A stretch of DNA of 64,000 nt, taken from the IMG/VR virus record IMGVR_UViG_3300032242_001655, positions 32,079 through 96,078 of that record; one strand, written 5' to 3'. Shown here in pieces: positions 3,013-37,669 of the stretch (position 1 is the first letter of the stretch; each line of letters starts with the position of its first letter). The notes under the pieces are model-generated. The model searched no databases and was not told where the DNA came from. It saw nothing but the letters and a program-made list of their open reading frames with translations. The DNA comes from a virus. The position numbers and the translations under genes are program-made.

Positions 3013-3073
3013 ATAAATTGTCTGTTAAGCATCTTGGCATAGCCATGTTAGCAGTAATTGGGCGATGATTCTC

Positions 3074-3102
3074 TTGACAGATTCGTCAACGGTTAGTAAA
3101 AT
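3074..3102 (+). promoter_or_regulatory. sigma70-type promoter of the tmRNA
   Basis: TTGACA-N17-TAAAAT. Confidence 0.8.
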
Positions 3103-3108
3103 GTAAGT

Positions 3109-3360
3109 TATTGCTGTATGAAGCAAAGAGAAAAGTGTTCTGGACGCGAGTTCGAATCTCGCCATCTCCACCTAAATGTATTAAGGTATATTTAGGTGGG
3201 GATGAAAATGGTTTCGACAGGGCAACAAGTAATGGCGTGGACAGCAGAGTAGGCGATGACTCTAAATCAAGCAAAAAACGTAAATGCAAACGACGAACAG
3301 TTCGCTTTAGCCGCCTAAACTCGGCTTAGGGTAGGAAATACCTCGTAACAGAAATAACCA
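3109..3360 (+). ncRNA. ssrA: circularly permuted (two-piece) tmRNA, tag ANDEQFALAA
   Basis: T-arm plus CATCTCC-A-CC (3143-3172) lies upstream of the 5' end GGGGATG...TTTCGAC (3198); G3.U70 pair; tag ORF 3286-3318; outer ends approximate. Confidence 0.93.
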
Positions 3361-3380
3361 GGGGCTACGGCCCCTTTCTT
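3361..3380 (+). terminator. intrinsic terminator after the tmRNA
   Basis: GGGGC-tacg-GCCCC followed by TTTCTT. Confidence 0.75.
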
Positions 3381-3406
3381 ATCAGTTTTAAAAAGGATGA
3401 TTAAAA

Positions 3407-4324
3407 ATGGCAACAACAGTAACAATTGGGCAGACCCCAATTAACGCAACATATTCCCTAGTAGGGGGTGCAACAAATGGTGCAGGCGCTCAGGCAAAAT
3501 TCACTGTACAAAAAACAAATGGTGTATATGTAACCACCCTCGATTCAACTAATGGCGGTACAGGATATGCTCTTGGTGATACAGTTACCATTCCGGGCAC
3601 AAGCCTTGGTGGAACAGCCCCAGCCAATAACGATGTTATTATCGTTACTGGACTTGGTACAAATGGCGCAATTAAAACATTCGCCACAGCAGGTGTAGGT
3701 GCAATTGGTAATGGAACTATTAATACAGTTATTAATGTTACTCCAGATGTAGTTGCTCCAATTAACACATATGTTATGGGCGACAAAAGCGCCAACTTTA
3801 CAGTAGTTAACGATACAGCAAACAATGTTATCAGAGAAACCAGTGCTTTAAATTCTACTGTGAGTTTTAACCTAAATAACTACCAGCGTGTGGTATATAC
3901 AGATAAAGCAACCGCTTTTGATATTTCTGGTAAAGCAGGCGATGTTTATTCATTGCTTAAAGCAAGTTTTGGCGGAACGGTTAATACTACATACGAAGGT
4001 ATCGGTATTAAATTGGAAGATGCTGGCACAACCAGCGCACAAGTTGCTCAAGCAATTGTAACTAGTGCTCCATTCTTAACAGCAAATCCAGATATTCCTA
4101 CTTTTGTGAACAATCTGTATACCAATGTTATGGGAGTGGCTCCAACTCCAACTCAGGCAAGTCCGTATATTACTTCCTTAGTAACAGGTGGAACAACAAT
4201 GGGGGCTTTACTAAATGCGGCCGCTCATCTTACCACATATCAACAAACAATTGGTTTGGTAGGTGTTGCTCCAGCAACAACAGGCGTATTAGCCGGTTCA
4301 GGAATTGACTACATTCCAGCCTAA
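3407..4324 (+). CDS. Thr/Gly-rich surface or S-layer-like protein with a C-terminal DUF4214-like domain
   Basis: AFDISGKAGDVYSLLKASFG...FVNNLYTNVMGVAP pattern; RBS AAGGA. Confidence 0.65.
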   Translation: MATTVTIGQTPINATYSLVGGATNGAGAQAKFTVQKTNGVYVTTLDSTNGGTGYALGDTVTIPGTSLGGTAPANNDVIIVTGLGTNGAIKTFATAGVGAIGNGTINTVINVTPDVVAPINTYVMGDKSANFTVVNDTANNVIRETSALNSTVSFNLNNYQRVVYTDKATAFDISGKAGDVYSLLKASFGGTVNTTYEGIGIKLEDAGTTSAQVAQAIVTSAPFLTANPDIPTFVNNLYTNVMGVAPTPTQASPYITSLVTGGTTMGALLNAAAHLTTYQQTIGLVGVAPATTGVLAGSGIDYIPA

Positions 4325-31727: not shown

Positions 31728-31752
31728 TGTGGCAAAAAAGCCACAGATCAGG

Positions 31753-31781
31753 TTGACAACGAGACTAAATAAACGTACAAT
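31753..31781 (+). promoter_or_regulatory. sigma70 promoter of the leader/tRNA operon
   Basis: TTGACA-N17-TACAAT. Confidence 0.8.
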
Positions 31782-31806
31782 AATACTTTAAGGAAAGTAA
31801 ACGCAA

Positions 31807-31935
31807 ATGAAAAACTGTTCGATACATTATTATACAAAGGCCAAACAGGCAGGCTTTATGCCCTCTGTATGGTTTGCGTCAAGTAATGATCGTACACAAG
31901 AGATTTGCCAGGGGTCCAAGGAGACCATAGTGTAA
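31807..31935 (+). CDS. putative attenuator leader peptide (42 aa)
   Basis: MKNCSIHYYTKAKQAGFMPSVWFASSNDRTQEICQGSKETIV; AAGGA upstream; overlaps the antiterminator arm. Confidence 0.6.
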   Translation: MKNCSIHYYTKAKQAGFMPSVWFASSNDRTQEICQGSKETIV

Positions 31936-31990
31936 AGAAACACTAACTAACTCCAAAGGACCCCAGGATTAAAAACCCTGGGGTTTTTTA
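31908..31990 (+). terminator. attenuator with a mutually exclusive antiterminator and terminator
   Basis: Terminator ACCCCAGG(31960)/CCTGGGGT plus T6; antiterminator GGGGTCC..GGAG(31911-23) pairing CTCC..GGACCCC(31951-64). Confidence 0.7.
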
Positions 31991-32005
31991 TTACTTGAAA
32001 GAATT

Positions 32006-32170
32006 ATGAACGAAACAGAAAAGAAATTTAAAAGAGAAGCCGATTGGTTTGCCGCACACTCAATGACCAAGCAAGAAGTTGAAAAACTCATTGCCGAAAA
32101 GATGGCTCGTGCGTTAGCATACCTAGAGGCTCAAAACAAGCAGTCAATGGTTCCTAAAGAGATCCAATAA
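32006..32170 (+). CDS. small hypothetical protein (54 aa)
   Basis: Read by eye; first ORF after the attenuator. Confidence 0.5.
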   Translation: MNETEKKFKREADWFAAHSMTKQEVEKLIAEKMARALAYLEAQNKQSMVPKEIQ

Positions 32171-32174
32171 TCTG

Positions 32175-32392
32175 CGAAGTGCTATAGGAAACGAGGTCCT
32201 TGTATCACTCTAAACTACTAAACGGGCGGCCTACGGGATGAAGTTCCTTTTGTGGAATGAAAAATCGTAGCGTATTAAAGTGTTCTTCATTCACCCTGCA
32301 CAGGTGTCTAAAAGCATAGCGGAGAGCATTTTAATACACACTCTCTACTTCACTCGACTGGAAGGACACGGCACGTAGTGCTGAGAGTGTTA
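32175..32392 (+). ncRNA. candidate structured RNA ahead of the first tRNA
   Basis: Stems 32231-35/32266-70, 32272-86/32323-37 and 32338-45/32383-90. Confidence 0.4.
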
Positions 32393-32400
32393 TCTATTTT

Positions 32401-32490
32401 GGAGCCTGTTCCCTACGGCGGACTGTAAATCCGTTGCCATAATTTTGTAGGGTGGCTGGCAGTTAGGTTCAATTCCTTCAGGCTCCACCA
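32401..32490 (+). tRNA. tRNA-Tyr(GTA), atypical, with no canonical D-arm
   Basis: GGAGCCTG/CAGGCTCC-A-CCA; anticodon loop CTGTAAA; T-loop TTCAATT. Confidence 0.75.
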
Positions 32491-32495
32491 ATTTA

Positions 32496-32570
32496 GGTCT
32501 CAAAGTGTTCATGGACGCACACGAGCCTGTCACGCTCGAAGAAGGGGATCGTTACCCCTTGGGACCGCCA
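32496..32570 (+). tRNA. tRNA-Asp(GTC)
   Basis: Cloverleaf, loop CTGTCAC, non-canonical T-loop ATCGTTA, CCA. Confidence 0.85.
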
Positions 32571-32576
32571 AATTAT

Positions 32577-32651
32577 TCCCTAGTAGATCAGAGGTAGATC
32601 AGCGGACTGTTAATCCGTGTGTCGGTGGTTCGATCCCACCCTGGGGAGCCA
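32577..32651 (+). tRNA. tRNA-Asn(GTT)
   Basis: Cloverleaf, loop CTGTTAA, CCA. Confidence 0.92.
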
Positions 32652-32656
32652 AACAT

Positions 32657-32731
32657 GGGCTGTTAGTGATAATGGGAGCACGGGGGCTTTGCAAGCCTTA
32701 GGTGGGAGTTCGATCCTCCCACGGTCCACCA
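32657..32731 (+). tRNA. tRNA-Ala(TGC)
   Basis: Cloverleaf, G3.U70, CCA. Confidence 0.92.
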
Positions 32732-32736
32732 AGTTT

Positions 32737-32811
32737 GCCGAGGTAGCTCAGAGGAAGAGCAATGTGTTGATAACGCATAGGTCGAGATTTCAAAATTCTC
32801 CCTCGGTACCA
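32737..32811 (+). tRNA. tRNA-Ile(GAT)
   Basis: Cloverleaf, loop TTGATAA, CCA. Confidence 0.88.
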
Positions 32812-32815
32812 GTTT

Positions 32816-32892
32816 GGGACGGTAACTCAGTTGGCTAGAGTATCGGTCTTTTAAACCGAGAGTCGCGGGTTCGAATCCCGCTCGTCCTACCA
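32816..32892 (+). tRNA. tRNA-Lys(TTT)
   Basis: Cloverleaf, loop CTTTTAA, CCA. Confidence 0.93.
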
Positions 32893-32900
32893 ATGTTTGT

Positions 32901-32974
32901 TGGCTTATGGTGAAATGGTATCACAACGGATTTTGATTCCGTCGTTCTTGGTTCGATCCCAAGTAGGCCTGCCA
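32901..32974 (+). tRNA. tRNA-Gln(TTG)
   Basis: Cloverleaf, unpaired 1:72, loop TTTTGAT, CCA. Confidence 0.9.
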
Positions 32975-33118
32975 ATTAGTTAGAGTAAATGTATTTTCTA
33001 CCGTAGGATAAGATTCTAGAAATTCTTTAGAAGTAGTCCAAGAAGTTCTTGGAACATAGGAAGATTTGCTGAGATTATACAACATTTTGTATTCAGTATA
33101 GTCATCTTCAAATTTCAT
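32921..33118 (-). CDS. possible small antisense ORF within the tRNA array
   Basis: TAAATA-N5-ATG at its start; 3' end runs antisense into tRNA-Gln. Confidence 0.35.
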   Translation of the reverse strand: MKFEDDYTEYKMLYNLSKSSYVPRTSWTTSKEFLESYPTVENTFTLTNWQAYLGSNQERRNQNPL

Positions 33119-33130
33119 AATAATATTTAT

Positions 33131-33205
33131 GGTAATGTAGCATAATGGAAGTGCCCCGCCTTCATACGGCGTCCAGTGTAGGTTCGACTCCTACCATTAC
33201 CACCA
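33131..33205 (+). tRNA. tRNA(CAT), either elongator Met or Ile2
   Basis: Cloverleaf, paired 1:72, loop TTCATAC, CCA. Confidence 0.85.
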
Positions 33206-33206
33206 T

Positions 33207-33295
33207 GGAGGGTTATCTGGGCTGGGCCCAGCTCTGTCTTGAAAACAGAAGGTTCGCGAAAGCGGATAGAGTTCGATTCTACTAGCCCTCCTCCA
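33207..33295 (+). tRNA. tRNA-Ser(TGA), atypical 6-bp D-stem
   Basis: Loop CTTGAAA, long variable arm, CCA. Confidence 0.8.
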
Positions 33296-33315
33296 TATAT
33301 ACATTAAATATCCAG

Positions 33316-33927
33316 ATGCAATATTGGTTATTTTTCTGGGGCGGTACAGGTGGTGATGGACTTAGCAATCTGCTAGAACATGCTGACAATCTAGAACCCT
33401 GTGATGGAATAAAACGATGGCGTACTAGAAATACTCCATCAGGTAAGATTGCGTTCCATGGGCCTAGGTTTTCTAACGTACCATCACTGTTTAGAAATCA
33501 TCAAGGATTTGATATGAGCAAAATTCATTTGCTCAAGCACTATGTAGATTTAATAGAACAAGGAAAGAATACAGTTATTCCTGCACATCCGTGGCCTTAT
33601 AATGATTTTCTTTCTAAGTTTCCACAAAGAGATATCATTGAAAAAGATCAACACAAAATTCTGTTATACTCAAATGATATGGATAGAATAGTTACAGACT
33701 TTATAGATAAGAATCCTACTAGTGAAAAGGCCAAACAAGAATTAATTAGATCAATTGCTGGGAAAAATGTCCTTAAGGATTCGCCTAAATTAGGATATCA
33801 AACATACATTGATATGGATAAAGTTTGGAAAGATTGGGATTACCTAAATAACATCCTAACTGGTATAGGAATTAATTTAGATAGAGTGTATTATGAAGAA
33901 TACTTAAATGTATCAAAGAAAAGATAA
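33316..33927 (+). CDS. hypothetical protein (sulfotransferase/P-loop-like N-terminus)
   Basis: FWGGTGGDGLSNLL; ORF between tRNAs. Confidence 0.6.
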   Translation: MQYWLFFWGGTGGDGLSNLLEHADNLEPCDGIKRWRTRNTPSGKIAFHGPRFSNVPSLFRNHQGFDMSKIHLLKHYVDLIEQGKNTVIPAHPWPYNDFLSKFPQRDIIEKDQHKILLYSNDMDRIVTDFIDKNPTSEKAKQELIRSIAGKNVLKDSPKLGYQTYIDMDKVWKDWDYLNNILTGIGINLDRVYYEEYLNVSKKR

Positions 33928-33928
33928 A

Positions 33929-34018
33929 GGAGCGGTGGCCGAACGGTAAGGCAGTAGATTGCTAATCTATACAACGTGTTAAAGCGTTGACTGGGTTCGA
34001 CTCCCAGTCGCTCCGCCA
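33929..34018 (+). tRNA. tRNA-Ser(GCT)
   Basis: Class II cloverleaf, CCA. Confidence 0.92.
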
Positions 34019-34023
34019 AATTA

Positions 34024-34097
34024 GCCCTATTAGTACAATGGCAGTACAGCGGTTTTGTAATCCGTTGATGGCAGTTCGATTCTGTCATGGGGCACCA
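34024..34097 (+). tRNA. tRNA-Thr(TGT)
   Basis: Cloverleaf, loop TTTGTAA, CCA. Confidence 0.9.
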
Positions 34098-34101
34098 ATT
34101 T

Positions 34102-34175
34102 ACCTCGTTCGTCTAATGGTAGGGCCGCGCCTTTACACGGCGCAGACGGCAGTTCGATTCTGTCACGAGGTACCA
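34102..34175 (+). tRNA. tRNA-Val(TAC)
   Basis: Cloverleaf, loop TTTACAC, CCA. Confidence 0.9.
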
Positions 34176-34189
34176 TAGACTGTTTAGGT

Positions 34190-34264
34190 GTGACCTTAGT
34201 GTTAGCGGTTAGCACCACGGATTGTGATTCCGTTAGGATGGATTCGAATTCCATAGGTCACCCC
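34190..34264 (+). tRNA. tRNA-His(GTG)
   Basis: GTGACCT/AGGTCAC, C73, loop TTGTGAT; position -1 is T; CCA not fully encoded. Confidence 0.85.
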
Positions 34265-34289
34265 TGAGCAGTTTTGTAAATAGAATTAA

Positions 34290-34366
34290 CGGTGTGTAGC
34301 TCAGCCTGGTAGAGCTCTTGGTTTGGGACCAAGTGGTCGCATGTTCGAATCGTGTCACACCGACCA
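34290..34366 (+). tRNA. tRNA-Pro(TGG)
   Basis: Cloverleaf, loop TTTGGGA, CCA. Confidence 0.93.
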
Positions 34367-34380
34367 TATAAAGGAATATT

Positions 34381-34653
34381 ATGTCAAAAGTAAGAGCAAG
34401 CCATATTTTAGTCATGTCATTAAATGAAGCAGTTAACATCCATGAACAAATTTCAAATGGTGTTAGTTTTGAAACATTGGCTCAACAAAATAGTAAGTGC
34501 CCTAGCGGACGCAATGGCGGAGACCTAGGCGAGTTTGGACGCGGACAAATGGTTAAGCCATTTGAAGATGCCGCATTTGGGTTAAATGTAGGAAGTCTCA
34601 GTGACCCAATCAAAACACAATTTGGGTATCACCTCATCAAGCGTACTGCCTAA
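34381..34653 (+). CDS. ppiC: parvulin-type peptidyl-prolyl cis-trans isomerase
   Basis: RASHILV, SKCPSGRNGGDLGEFGRGQMVKPFE and TQFGYHLI. Confidence 0.95.
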   Translation: MSKVRASHILVMSLNEAVNIHEQISNGVSFETLAQQNSKCPSGRNGGDLGEFGRGQMVKPFEDAAFGLNVGSLSDPIKTQFGYHLIKRTA

Positions 34654-34654
34654 C

Positions 34655-35659
34655 ATGTTAAACTACACCTTACACGAAAACGGTTGGACGGTGTTGTTAG
34701 GTAACTTTGATTTTAAAAATACTACACAACAAGATGCAGATGAAATTGCTCGACTAGTTTCTACCAATGTAGCAGTTGTAGCACAGGGTAGTAATATTGA
34801 AAATATGACTCCAGAAGATCAGGTTCGGTTCTGCTCAATGATAGGTAACCTTGAAGAATATCATAATGACACAGCATGGGGTCGTGCTATTGCTCTAAGT
34901 ACTGATAACATCGGAAATAAGATCCAACGTGTTACAGGTGCGGCAAATGAAGAAGGACATCCTGGTTTATTTGGACATGACGAAGAATTAGATTGGCACA
35001 ATAATACTCCCTGGGACATGAGACGCAAGCCCGCTGTATTTTTAAAATCAATCAGCGGAGCAGAAGGTAGTAGAACAAGTTGGACTAACACACAGTTGGC
35101 TTACCGTGATCTTAAACTTGAAGACCCTGCATTTGTTCAAGAATTAGAAGAACAGAATTATCGTGTAGTTTGTGGTTGGCACAAAGAAGGTGGTCATACA
35201 ACAATGTATAACTACTGGCATGATCAGGGACATTTTCCAGATGAAGTAGAATCTGAAGAAACTGCTATGCCATTGGTCTTTACTAATGAAACAGGTTGTA
35301 AAGGATTTTTCTTACCATATCTACAAGCACATAGATTATTCGGCTTGACAAGAGAAGAAAGTTTGCCTATACTTAAACGAGTATGGGATTATTGCTTACA
35401 AGAAAAATACATTTATCATCATGATTGGCTACCCGGGGGTAGCGAGATAGTGTTTGCCGAGCAATGGCTATCTACACATAAGCGTTGGGAGTTTGATAAA
35501 ATGAAAACTCGTTTTATGGAAAGATCAGCAGTTGACTATGTAAACACTTCATGGTGGCCAGATGTAAAGAAAACATTTAGAAAACAGATAACAGACATAA
35601 TAAGACAGAATAATGTAGAGATGGCAGAGCGGCAAATGCAACGGATTGCAAATCCGTAA
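34655..35659 (+). CDS. TauD/TfdA-family Fe(II)/2OG dioxygenase-like protein
   Basis: ELDWHNN, GSRTSW, YHHDW...HKRW; 3' end overlaps tRNA-Cys. Confidence 0.7.
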   Translation: MLNYTLHENGWTVLLGNFDFKNTTQQDADEIARLVSTNVAVVAQGSNIENMTPEDQVRFCSMIGNLEEYHNDTAWGRAIALSTDNIGNKIQRVTGAANEEGHPGLFGHDEELDWHNNTPWDMRRKPAVFLKSISGAEGSRTSWTNTQLAYRDLKLEDPAFVQELEEQNYRVVCGWHKEGGHTTMYNYWHDQGHFPDEVESEETAMPLVFTNETGCKGFFLPYLQAHRLFGLTREESLPILKRVWDYCLQEKYIYHHDWLPGGSEIVFAEQWLSTHKRWEFDKMKTRFMERSAVDYVNTSWWPDVKKTFRKQITDIIRQNNVEMAERQMQRIANP

Positions 35660-35691
35660 AACCGTGGGTTCGAGTCCCACTCTCTATTCCA
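35615..35691 (+). tRNA. tRNA-Cys(GCA)
   Basis: GTAGAGA/TCTCTAT, U73, loop TTGCAAA, CCA. Confidence 0.9.
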
Positions 35692-35708
35692 GGTTAAATA
35701 TATGCGAT

Positions 35709-35782
35709 GCGGGATTAGTTTAATGGTAAAACGAGATCCTTCCAAGTTCAAGTCAGCGGTTCGATTCCGCTATCCCGCTCCA
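35709..35782 (+). tRNA. tRNA-Gly(TCC)
   Basis: Cloverleaf, U73, CCA; anticodon stem has two mismatches. Confidence 0.82.
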
Positions 35783-35796
35783 AGTTAAAGGTTATC

Positions 35797-36516
35797 ATGA
35801 ATATTGGATATTTTGGTCATAGTACAGTAGGTGACGATACTAATGGAAAAGAAGGGTCATTTATTATCGATGTTGCTAAGTTTTTTAATGCACAAATTGT
35901 AAATGTAGGAACTGGTCAAGGTTCTGAAGAACGTATTTTATTTGATCTTAAAAAATGCAGACACATAGATGTTGCTGTGATATTTCACAGCAGACCTCAG
36001 AGTTTGTTTATTCCTAATTGTAAAATGGATTTTAATATTTCTGAGGATCCAGATCGCAAAGCAGAGATACTTTGGAGTCAGGAATTGATTTTACAAATGA
36101 CTCCTCCTGCGGAAAACGAAGATCAGATGTATACAGAAAAATATAAAGAAAGTCTTCAATACAGAAAGAACTTTTCGTCTGTGTTCAAAACTCCTCAGGA
36201 TTTTGCCACATGTCTAAAGAATTTTAAAAAATATCTTTATCATCAGGATCTGCAACAAAACAGGTTCGAAGGTGCACTAACATTGATAGATCAATACTGT
36301 GCGGCGAGAGTTCCTATTGTAGTCCATTCAATTGATAAAAAACGACTACCTGCCTGGTGGACTGGGTTTAAGTCTGGAGTACTAGGCGAGGAATTGAATG
36401 TAATTGAAAATCAATATAGACAAACTAGTCAACCAAATTGTCTAAACCCAGAAGGACATAAACGAATGGGTGCTGAGGTAATTAGACTTATTCTTGAACA
36501 GATGGAAAAAAGATAA
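35797..36516 (+). CDS. hypothetical protein (SGNH-like N-terminus)
   Basis: YFGHS...NVGTGQGS...LNPEGH. Confidence 0.6.
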   Translation: MNIGYFGHSTVGDDTNGKEGSFIIDVAKFFNAQIVNVGTGQGSEERILFDLKKCRHIDVAVIFHSRPQSLFIPNCKMDFNISEDPDRKAEILWSQELILQMTPPAENEDQMYTEKYKESLQYRKNFSSVFKTPQDFATCLKNFKKYLYHQDLQQNRFEGALTLIDQYCAARVPIVVHSIDKKRLPAWWTGFKSGVLGEELNVIENQYRQTSQPNCLNPEGHKRMGAEVIRLILEQMEKR

Positions 36517-36525
36517 CTAGTTGAT

Positions 36526-36614
36526 GCAGGTCGTGGCAGAGTGGTCAAATGCGCCCGGTCGTAAATCGGGTGACCTTTAAGGTCTACGGAGGTTCGAATC
36601 CCCCATCTGCTCCA
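36526..36614 (+). tRNA. degenerate class II tRNA, Tyr(GTA)-like
   Basis: Loop TCGTAAA (C33), long variable arm, irregular acceptor/T stems, CCA. Confidence 0.55.
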
Positions 36615-36619
36615 ATTTT

Positions 36620-36694
36620 CGGTCTTTGGTGAAATGGATATCATTCTTGTCTTCGAAACAAGAGGTGTGGGTTCGATTCCTGCAAGACCGGCCA
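36620..36694 (+). tRNA. tRNA-Arg(TCG)
   Basis: Cloverleaf, loop CTTCGAA, CCA. Confidence 0.9.
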
Positions 36695-36695
36695 A

Positions 36696-36998
36696 TTATA
36701 CAGTATAAGTTGTAGAAGTGGTAATAATATTGTTTTCTAAATTATATTGGTACCTCATAATTTGTTCAGGTTGAGATAATCTCCAATTTTTAAAATCATC
36801 TAAAGATGCTTGATCTTCAAAAATACGAGTTTCAATTGCTGTGTTTACATCAGGATTTTCAATATTCCATCCAATGGCTTTAGGCCCATTATAATTCTTA
36901 ATATTAGATATCATAGTTTGCACAACATCAGGGTGTACGTCTCTAAACCAAACAACATTCTCTGGTTTTCGAGAAATAGTTTTTTCAACAATCGCCAT
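36696..36998 (-). CDS. hypothetical protein
   Basis: GGAG RBS and TATAAATA upstream on the minus strand. Confidence 0.65.
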   Translation of the reverse strand: MAIVEKTISRKPENVVWFRDVHPDVVQTMISNIKNYNGPKAIGWNIENPDVNTAIETRIFEDQASLDDFKNWRLSQPEQIMRYQYNLENNIITTSTTYTV

Positions 36999-37040
36999 AC
37001 AGTTCTCCAAGTAATTAATTATTATTTATATACTTTTTTT

Positions 37041-37116
37041 GCCAATTTAGCAAATGTGGTCATTGCGGCGGACTGAAAATCCGTGGAACCTGGTTCGATC
37101 CCGGGAGTTGGCACCA
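37041..37116 (+). tRNA. tRNA-Phe(GAA)
   Basis: Cloverleaf, loop CTGAAAA, CCA. Confidence 0.92.
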
Positions 37117-37138
37117 TGTTGTATTTTTGCTACATGTA

Positions 37139-37167
37139 TTGACACAGGCAATAAATGCCTGTATAAT
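37139..37167 (+). promoter_or_regulatory. consensus sigma70 promoter with a palindromic spacer
   Basis: TTGACA-N17-TATAAT; ACAGGCA-ataaa-TGCCTGT. Confidence 0.85.
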
Positions 37168-37181
37168 TGATATTAAGTTAG

Positions 37182-37255
37182 CGCGGGATAGAGTAGTGGT
37201 TACTCATGGGTCTCATAAGCCCACCAGGTAGGTTCGATTCCTGCTCCCGCAACCA
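37182..37255 (+). tRNA. initiator tRNA-fMet(CAT)
   Basis: C1:A72 mismatch, loop CTCATAA, GGG/CCC in the anticodon stem, CCA. Confidence 0.85.
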
Positions 37256-37258
37256 ACT

Positions 37259-37334
37259 GTCCCGTTCGTCTAGAGGCCTAGGACATCACCCTTTCACGGT
37301 GAGTACACCAGTTCGAATCTGGTACGGGACGCCA
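37259..37334 (+). tRNA. tRNA-Glu(TTC)
   Basis: Cloverleaf, loop CTTTCAC, CCA. Confidence 0.93.
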
Positions 37335-37502
37335 TTAGTTGAGAGCATTCACGAGGTATTGTGTATGGACGCATACACTAGGCGGGCTGGTCGGGCCATC
37401 GATAAGTCCTAATATAACTCGGGCAATGGCTTATGAGAGGATCGCGCCCTCACTCAGAAATACGCTCAGCCTGTAAGGCTGTCGAGTGTTTTCAACTAAT
37501 GG
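37332..37502 (+). ncRNA. candidate structured RNA with a 19-bp closing stem
   Basis: CCATTAGTTGAGAGCATTC pairs GAGTGTTTTCAACTAATGG (with G.U); internal hairpins. Confidence 0.5.
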
Positions 37503-37517
37503 TAAGTAATGTATTAC

Positions 37518-37594
37518 GCCCCGGTGACGGAATTGGTATACGTGTTGGTCTTAGAAGCCAAATTTTAGGAGTTCGAGTCTCCTCTGGGGCACCA
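37518..37594 (+). tRNA. tRNA-Leu(TAG), short variable loop
   Basis: Leu-type D-loop, loop CTTAGAA, A73, CCA. Confidence 0.88.
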
Positions 37595-37595
37595 A

Positions 37596-37669
37596 GTCTC
37601 TTTAGTATAATGGCAGTACTGCGGTCTCCAAAACCGTTAGTGGGGGTTCGAGTCCCTCAGGGGACGCCA
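37596..37669 (+). tRNA. tRNA-Trp(CCA)
   Basis: Cloverleaf, loop CTCCAAA, G73, CCA. Confidence 0.92.

Follow-up and report, generated by a model that had tools for sequence, protein, structure and literature searches.

Leader peptides that attenuate transcription are known from the amino-acid operons of Escherichia coli, e.g. trpL, hisL and pheL as well as the multivalent thrL and ilvL, and the pheM leader controls pheST (Phe-tRNA synthetase) in the same organism. The pyrBI and pyrE attenuators, in turn, sense the coupling between ribosome and RNA polymerase. The attenuators of amino-acid operons (see PMC3082878) and of pyrBI and pyrE (see PMC4824070) are joined by leaders that sense the inhibition of translation, such as the ermC-type leaders, bmrB-bmrCD from Bacillus subtilis and the mef/mel leader (PMC4335068). 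A compact element of about 240 bp from a phage can now be compared with these systems. It is located in a stretch of 64,000 nucleotides (nt), referred to as the window, that forms part of a 96-kb virus contig (IMG/VR record IMGVR_UViG_3300032242_001655). The element combines the anatomy of an attenuator with conservation among relatives, covarying stems, an all-amino-acid leader composition and a position ahead of tRNA arrays. It is probably a ribosome-mediated transcription attenuator that heads a phage tRNA operon and whose leader samples the whole aminoacyl-tRNA pool.

All parts of the element, as well as the small gene, conserved RNA region and tRNA array behind it, lie on the plus strand of the window. 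A promoter scan located a σ70-type promoter at 31753–31781 (TTGACA, 17 nt, TACAAT; 11 of 12 consensus matches), from whose position transcription would start near 31788. A Shine-Dalgarno-like stretch, AAGGAAAG (31790–31797), read from the sequence, is found 9 nt 5' of the ATG of an open reading frame (ORF) of 42 codons plus TAA (31807–31935), i.e. a start signal and a short ORF directly follow the promoter. The encoded leader contains 19 kinds of amino acids, with only Leu missing, and uses 33 distinct codons among 42, including five Ser codons. Upon folding, the 5' and 3' halves of the ORF pair with each other in a long imperfect hairpin termed P1 (31803–31908), which harbors the start codon in its base and a conserved apical hairpin at 31838–31875. 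The last eight leader codons then contribute the 5' strand of the antiterminator (31911–31923), consisting of GGGGUCC (31911–31917) and GGAG (31920–31923). Its 3' strand (31951–31964) comprises CUCC (31951–31954) and GGACCCC (31958–31964), and the two strands enclose an inner hairpin (31928–31945; UAGUGU at 31928–31933, ACACUA at 31940–31945) with the stop codon TAA (31933–31935) at its top. The GGACCCC segment doubles as part of the 5' arm of an intrinsic terminator (31955–31989) with a 5' arm at 31955–31967 (including GGACCCCAGG, 31958–31967), a 9-nt loop (31968–31976) and a 3' arm plus U-tract, CCTGGGG and T6, at 31977–31989. The terminator folds with −19.2 kcal/mol and had been skipped by a pattern scanner, since its loop exceeds the scanner maximum of 8 nt.

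Antiterminator and terminator are mutually exclusive in the window. The minimum-energy fold of the isolated domain is the antiterminator (−25.8 kcal/mol, z = −5.9) with all three pairings, i.e. GGGGUCC/GGACCCC, GGAG/CUCC and UAGUGU/ACACUA, and a transcript that ends before the terminator 3' arm folds as P1 plus antiterminator (−60 kcal/mol, z = −6.3). The full-length transcript (about 31788 to 31995) has the terminator in its minimum-energy fold (−66.2 kcal/mol, z = −6.0), and the 3' domain alone prefers the antiterminator (−31.6 kcal/mol). By our estimate, the two conformers differ by only about 1–2 kcal/mol, with the terminator ahead at full length, and this near equality argues for a balanced two-state switch. 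An anti-antiterminator in the form of a 1:2 pairing was not found in the window folds, in which P1 ends just 5' of the antiterminator without overlapping it. An earlier sequence-only reading of this DNA had proposed the promoter, the 42-codon ORF and its unusual composition, the terminator and the three antiterminator pairings; each was recovered at the same coordinates, and both of the conformers it envisaged form with almost equal energies.

The same element occurs in more than 100 IMG/VR contigs of freshwater phages, which provided 79 distinct full-length copies; the sequencing runs that contain the stretch itself are likewise freshwater or lake metagenomes. Relatives were gathered with a degenerate pattern for the core peptide motif, which returned 37 viral contigs, all of them true relatives, and with a pattern for a conserved downstream region termed element 2 (see below), which matched more than 120 contigs, the source contigs being up to 364 kb in size. 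An nhmmer profile placed the leader element in 114 of 155 loci. Of these, 75 had been gathered via element 2 alone and are therefore unbiased toward the peptide motif. In one relative, L002, the upstream protein is only 61% identical, and the leader region differs at few bases. Among the first 38 loci, a same-strand tRNA array follows the element in all 36 with sufficient downstream DNA, and a second count of 71 loci gave the same result without exception. Hence, the collection of homologous leaders envisaged by the sequence-only reading places the element at the head of a tRNA array wherever the available DNA reaches far enough. The first tRNA is found 218–1095 nt past the terminator, the arrays contain up to 37 tRNAs, and zero to two tRNAs lie upstream of the element. 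In several relatives, the next conserved element begins about 12 nt after the U-tract. The leader promoter (at least 10 of 12 matches) is found in the corresponding position in 70 of 71 relatives, and 55 of 71 are devoid of any σ70-like site with at least 10 of 12 matches between terminator and first tRNA. In the window, a scan at a threshold of at least 9 of 12 returned no plus-strand promoter site between 31990 and the first tRNA at 32496.

The spacing between promoter and ORF varies within the family. AAGGA-like words 5' of the ATG were noticed by eye in many leadered relatives, and in a subfamily (L010, L012, L014, L018, L021, L025, L027, L028, L033 and L034) the ATG is located 6–10 nt past the −10 box, which predicts a leaderless or almost leaderless mRNA. 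In other members, an insertion of 30 nt instead folds into a 5' hairpin directly behind the −10 box. Near and distant DNA searches as well as peptide tblastn against 50,697 phage records returned no relative, the sole match being a 63-nt tRNA stretch of Burkholderia phage FLC9. Neither the gathering threshold nor a permissive search up to E = 10 assigned the leader to an Rfam family, T-box included.

Across this family, the switch is maintained with compensatory changes. When folded without the terminator 3' arm, the terminator 5' arm pairs with the last leader codons in all 79 copies. Counted per sequence and anchored on the invariant CCC, the 7-bp antiterminator helix occurs as GGGGTCC/GGACCCC 33 times and as AGGGTCC/GGACCCT 29 times, with TTC/GAA, TTT/AAA, TCT/AGA and CTT/AAG as further variants; opposite an A in the 5' strand, T was counted 37 times and C not once. 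In a tree derived from the 5' domain alone, at least 11 changes map to the C/T site, and the partner base changed accordingly in 4.6 of 5 independent pairs with good support. For the three-base block, this is the case in three of four independent pairs, and neither site has a pair that goes in the opposite direction. Formal pair counts on a MAFFT alignment (A2) and a covariance-model alignment (A4) understate the pairing, because both align the antiterminator 5' strand in two registers, with a slide by +1 scoring like 0. In the terminator, 96% of the alignment cells are paired and four pairs have changed on both sides. The covariation of both stems predicted by the sequence-only reading is thus borne out.

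Of the two structures, the antiterminator is the more stable one in 78 of the 79 copies (mean −24.0 kcal/mol vs −15.1 kcal/mol for the terminator). In all 79, the stop codon lies 10–28 nt after the start of the antiterminator 5' strand and 21–31 nt before the shared strand. A terminating ribosome would therefore cover the 5' strand and the inner hairpin and leave the shared strand exposed. Given the footprint sizes of ribosomes, this stop geometry is of the trp type. A GTG-TAA behind the internal GGAG was considered as a start-stop mini-ORF and rejected, since the last sense codon is a non-start codon in many relatives. A long hairpin comparable to P1 is present in 11 diverse relatives whose folds were inspected individually, and across all 79 copies the mean z is −2.6 and the longest-range pair has a median span of 105 nt. 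The 3' strand of P1 contains a nearly invariant GATCG (31889–31893, including the word GATC) within AATGATCG, spanning the codons for N-D-R. One variant (L031:7701–8000, IMGVR_UViG_3300008110_005229) carries a deletion between CCAGGG of the antiterminator 5' strand and CCTGGGG of the terminator 3' arm, which looks like the product of recombination between two similar G-rich strands; it keeps a short hairpin and a U-tract, and its leader ORF continues past both.

The composition of the window leader is non-significant on its own, with a probability of about 0.09 for at least 19 kinds in 42 amino acids, and it becomes decisive only across relatives. All 20 amino acids are present in 65 of 79 leaders, 19 in 11 and 18 in three, at a mean length of 46.7 residues. 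In windows drawn from the phage's own long ORFs, the chance of all 20 is 0.029 for windows of 46 residues and 0.010 for those of 40, and 46-residue windows hold 17.0 kinds on average. Cys, His, Met and Tyr shift position and yet persist. His is single-copy in 67 of 70 aligned sequences and absent from none, spread over eight alignment columns. For Cys, 14 mutually exclusive patterns are distributed over 16 columns, and no sequence lacks an internal Met, which is decoded by the elongator tRNA. Shuffling columns among sequences (2000 shuffles), which preserves both conservation and composition, left 90.9 ± 6.5 amino acids missing (minimum 70) vs 17 observed, and 15.1 ± 3.1 sequences with all 20 vs 56 observed. 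Therefore, the diversity is not explained by conserved columns alone. No single amino acid is enriched, and a codon run of the classical kind is absent.

This diversity extends to decoding. Out of 24 decoding classes (two boxes each for Ser, Arg and Leu, AUY and AUA for Ile, and internal Met), the leaders cover 23.2 on average vs 18.8 by chance, and all 24 in 40 of 79 cases (chance 0.0014). Distinct codons number 35.6 per leader vs 32.2 ± 0.2 for the same peptides recoded with phage codon usage. In the region where a stalled ribosome would free the antiterminator (mean 35.6 codons), 76 of the 79 leaders contain 18–20 kinds (null about 15.6); this region chiefly lacks the Glu of a DRTPE motif located at its boundary. 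An independent sample agrees: 63 further leaders from a database of 5.8 billion proteins, all outside the 79, contain 20 kinds in 32 cases, 19 in 25 and 18 in six, with Cys and Val as the usual missing residues. Hence, the sequence-only reading was right to predict amino-acid diversity despite sequence divergence, as no leader falls below 18 kinds. The connection it drew between the missing Leu and the tRNA-Leu gene did not survive, however: Leu-less leaders are peculiar to the window, L002 and one other copy, and the absence of Leu does not track an absence of tRNA-Leu. A rule by which the missing residue matches a tRNA missing from the array was also rejected, since the window lacks Leu in its leader and encodes tRNA-Leu, and three Cys-less leaders (L013, L137 and L087) likewise precede tRNA-Cys.

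Several properties of the ORF suggest that it is translated. An ATG-initiated frame of 40–55 codons (if the open frame extends further upstream, the count starts at the ATG closest to the core) is maintained in all 79 copies despite indels, and length differences among relatives keep the reading frame. Every leader ends in TAA, vs 65% of the phage's long ORFs. These features are difficult to reconcile with a non-coding RNA in which the ORF is incidental and a bound factor sets the switch, be it a small RNA (about 200 nt) or a riboswitch-like leader that binds a protein or a tRNA. Such an RNA would agree with the highly structured transcript (z = −6.0), with the conservation of P1 and with core nucleotide conservation that extends to third codon positions, and a terminated leader would accumulate and could act in trans, as does the terminated leader RNA rnTrpL (PMC6614838). 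However, one alternative frame is closed in all 79 copies and the remaining one in 69 of them, while indels preserve the open frame, and the leaderless subfamily places its ATG near the inferred transcript start. Moreover, coverage of amino acids and decoding classes would be meaningless in an untranslated RNA, and the leader matches no Rfam family, T-box included. We regard this as the least probable of the explanations weighed here. An ordinary small gene, whose 42-residue product acts in trans from its own promoter and leaky terminator, with the tRNAs expressed by constitutive read-through or from other promoters, is also very unlikely. The ORF is indeed conserved, with conservative replacements, and public gene calls annotate it as a hypothetical protein; all 68 relatives in the 5.8-billion-protein database are unnamed or called hypothetical. 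Yet the peptide has no Pfam match, and AlphaFold2 with an alignment of 70 sequences gave no confident fold and no secondary structure (predicted local distance difference test score 63, predicted template modelling score 0.14). In addition, about ten C-terminal residues are read in two frames across the family, as ...ICQGSxETxV or ...VTGVQEDLVA, over the conserved GGGGUCC, and the 3' part of the leader is therefore constrained as RNA. A trans-acting protein would need no covarying antiterminator enclosing its stop codon, and there would be no reason to expect that it retains all 20 amino acids while their positions turn over.

An alternative that retains the translation-dependent attenuator assigns the sensing to the conserved peptide (G...W...DR), which would serve as an arrest or sensor peptide within the ribosome or bind a factor of the phage or the host, with the composition being secondary. 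Its Trp is invariant, G16, D28 and R29 are conserved in at least 90% of 70 sequences, and AKQAGFMP(T/S)xW is nearly invariant in nucleotides in one large clade. The arrest peptides known so far depend on a fixed spacing from the peptidyl-transferase centre, whereas in the family peptides the Trp is separated from DR by 5–16 residues and DRTPE is followed by about 5–13 residues, i.e. no fixed distance from the conserved residues to an arrest or stop codon is found. Furthermore, the Trp codon and GAUCG reside in conserved P1 stems, which accounts for part of their constancy, and a specific peptide offers no account of rare residues that move and yet persist. We therefore consider this alternative unlikely.

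For the attenuator that samples the whole aminoacyl-tRNA pool, the following course of events can be proposed. Host RNA polymerase would initiate at the σ70 promoter and a ribosome would start on the leader. A ribosome that keeps pace would reach the TAA and cover GGGGUCC, GGAG and the inner hairpin, GGACCCC would then be free for CCUGGGG, and the terminator would form and end transcription at 31989. If the ribosome lags within the first 31 codons or so, or was never loaded, the antiterminator (−25.8 kcal/mol) would form ahead of the terminator 3' arm, and the polymerase would continue through the small ORF and element 2 to the tRNA genes. Since about one codon per amino acid and nearly every decoding class are represented in the leader, phage tRNA synthesis would rise upon the loss of any one charged tRNA or when elongation slows in general, and read-through would drop again once supply recovers. 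As there is no anti-antiterminator, a complete shut-off of translation should also induce read-through. Conceivably, P1 acts as a polymerase pause or synchroniser. Both the direction of the switch and the dependence of the tRNAs on read-through are deduced from the arrangement of the sequence. On these grounds, we lean towards a universal gauge of aminoacyl-tRNA supply or ribosome speed, by which a near-complete tRNA set would be turned on when host tRNAs are depleted, outpaced or cleaved by defence nucleases, and off on recovery. If this holds true, the element would be the first known leader-peptide attenuator of tRNA genes and the first that is selected for the presence of every amino acid.

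A number of observations weigh against this interpretation. The conservation of AKQAGFMP(T/S)xW...DRTPE goes beyond what a pure composition requirement would need, and P1 explains it only in part. With one or few codons per amino acid, in place of the runs used by classical attenuators, the leader would respond poorly to mild starvation for one amino acid. For Glu in 57 of 79 leaders and for Val in 22 of 79, all codons lie so near the antiterminator that a ribosome stalled on them might mask it. Cys is missing from nine of the 79 leaders and from many of the further set, and three of the Cys-less leaders have tRNA-Cys downstream. The gating is not always exclusive, as 16 of 71 relatives have a strong promoter between terminator and first tRNA, and in the window itself additional promoter-like sites (35345 and 37139) are found further inside the array. 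In the subfamily with the ATG close to the −10 box, translation depends on leaderless initiation. The tree-based covariation stems from few independent pairs and has limited power (p about 0.06 and 0.25 singly). Finally, the material from lake metatranscriptomes consists of assembled contigs of relatives, some of which bridge the terminator; one also reaches upstream of the promoter, so that it possibly derives from DNA carry-over.

The region behind the terminator contains further components of the presumed operon. An ORF of 54 codons (MNETEKKFKREADWF..., 32006–32170) starts 17 nt past the U-tract without a promoter of its own. It is optional cargo that many relatives lack, and its slot is filled by other small ORFs (e.g. 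MRKIDLKRR...) in some relatives and by none in others; neither its product nor the 162-residue protein encoded upstream of the element has a Pfam match. Between this ORF and the first tRNA lies element 2 (32173–32400), a conserved structured RNA-like region whose 5' motif matches more than 120 viral contigs. Its two hairpins have accumulated many compensatory changes; the loops AACGAGG and AAACGGGCGG are invariant and the inserts variable. The region is also found at L003:5390–5650 and has no Rfam match at gathering or permissive thresholds. Within the tRNA operon, element 2 might serve as an RNA for processing, as a scaffold or in antitermination. The statement in the sequence-only reading that the terminator lies before the tRNA array is thus correct in order and has to be qualified, since the 54-codon ORF and this structured region of about 230 nt intervene.

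The array itself (32400–37669), the presumed regulated cargo, comprises a tRNA-Tyr-like gene, 21 tRNAs called by ARAGORN and a tRNA-Ser(UGA). The tRNA-Tyr-like gene (32400–32487) has a GUA anticodon and a long extra arm, received no ARAGORN call and scores 29 bits against Rfam tRNA-Sec; relatives often have a normally called tRNA-Tyr as the first gene behind element 2. The tRNA-Ser(UGA) with a long variable arm (33207–33291), also missed by ARAGORN, decodes UCN codons that are present in the leader. An Rfam label as tRNA-Sec (48.3 bits, just above threshold) was rejected for this gene because of its anticodon loop, CUUGAAA. Of the two strong promoter-like sites in the array, that at 37139 matches the consensus and precedes tRNA-Leu (37518), as the sequence-only reading had claimed. 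In one relative (L107:7302–7765), the tRNA array contains a GOLLD RNA (Rfam RF02032, 207 bits), which links this phage group to the lake-derived GOLLD carriers. The window further encodes a transfer-messenger RNA (3060–3409, tag ANDEQFALAA), a second translation-rescue function on the same contig. Its best score was obtained with the betaproteobacterial model, which is only a hint at the host group.

When and why large phages use near-complete tRNA sets is an open question. Current ideas include codon compensation, the replacement of degraded host tRNAs and the escape from tRNA-cleaving defences (PMC10264068, PMC11555353, PMC7162821). If the proposed function is correct, gating of the array by a sensor of the whole tRNA pool would mean that phage tRNAs are deployed on demand, which would suit a phage that has to replace a depleted or cleaved host tRNA pool (for context see PMC10264068, PMC11555353). 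Leader-peptide attenuation would thereby be extended from one amino acid to all. The underlying design principle, i.e. one codon of each kind that selection keeps while positions drift, has no counterpart in the literature searched, and full-text searches returned no description of such an all-amino-acid leader. Given its compact size, the element could also be of use as a portable reporter of translation capacity.

Taken together, the element possesses the structural hallmarks of a leader-peptide attenuator and lacks the codon run and the anti-antiterminator. Like trpL, hisL and pheL, it consists of a promoter-proximal short ORF, an intrinsic terminator and an antiterminator that shares the terminator 5' arm, and by its geometry the stop codon is placed such that a terminating ribosome would mask the antiterminator 5' strand. 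Unlike in the trpL/hisL type, a run of one codon is replaced by a set that represents all 20 amino acids with roughly one codon apiece, covering about 23 of 24 decoding classes, and the cargo consists of phage tRNA genes rather than biosynthetic enzymes. In contrast to trp, where an anti-antiterminator exists, an untranslated leader should here lead to read-through, i.e. to the opposite outcome. The pheM-pheST system likewise applies leader-peptide attenuation to a gene of the translation apparatus, but it senses Phe only and controls a synthetase instead of tRNA genes. With the ermC-type, bmrB-bmrCD and mef/mel leaders, the element would share that a stall on a short leader ORF relieves a downstream block and that a slowed ribosome is sensed instead of one metabolite, whereas those leaders respond to drug-bound ribosomes at specific peptide motifs. 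To our knowledge, none of them has been reported to contain all amino acids or to control tRNA genes. T-box riboswitches also choose between antiterminator and terminator, control translation-related genes and respond to tRNA charging, but they directly bind one specific uncharged tRNA and need no ORF; their Stem I specifier loop and T-box sequence were not detected here, with no Rfam match up to E = 10. As for pyrBI and pyrE, the outcome would be set by the distance between the polymerase and the leading ribosome, yet with opposite sign, since a close ribosome prevents termination in those operons, where the UTP-dependent (uridine triphosphate) speed of the polymerase is sensed.

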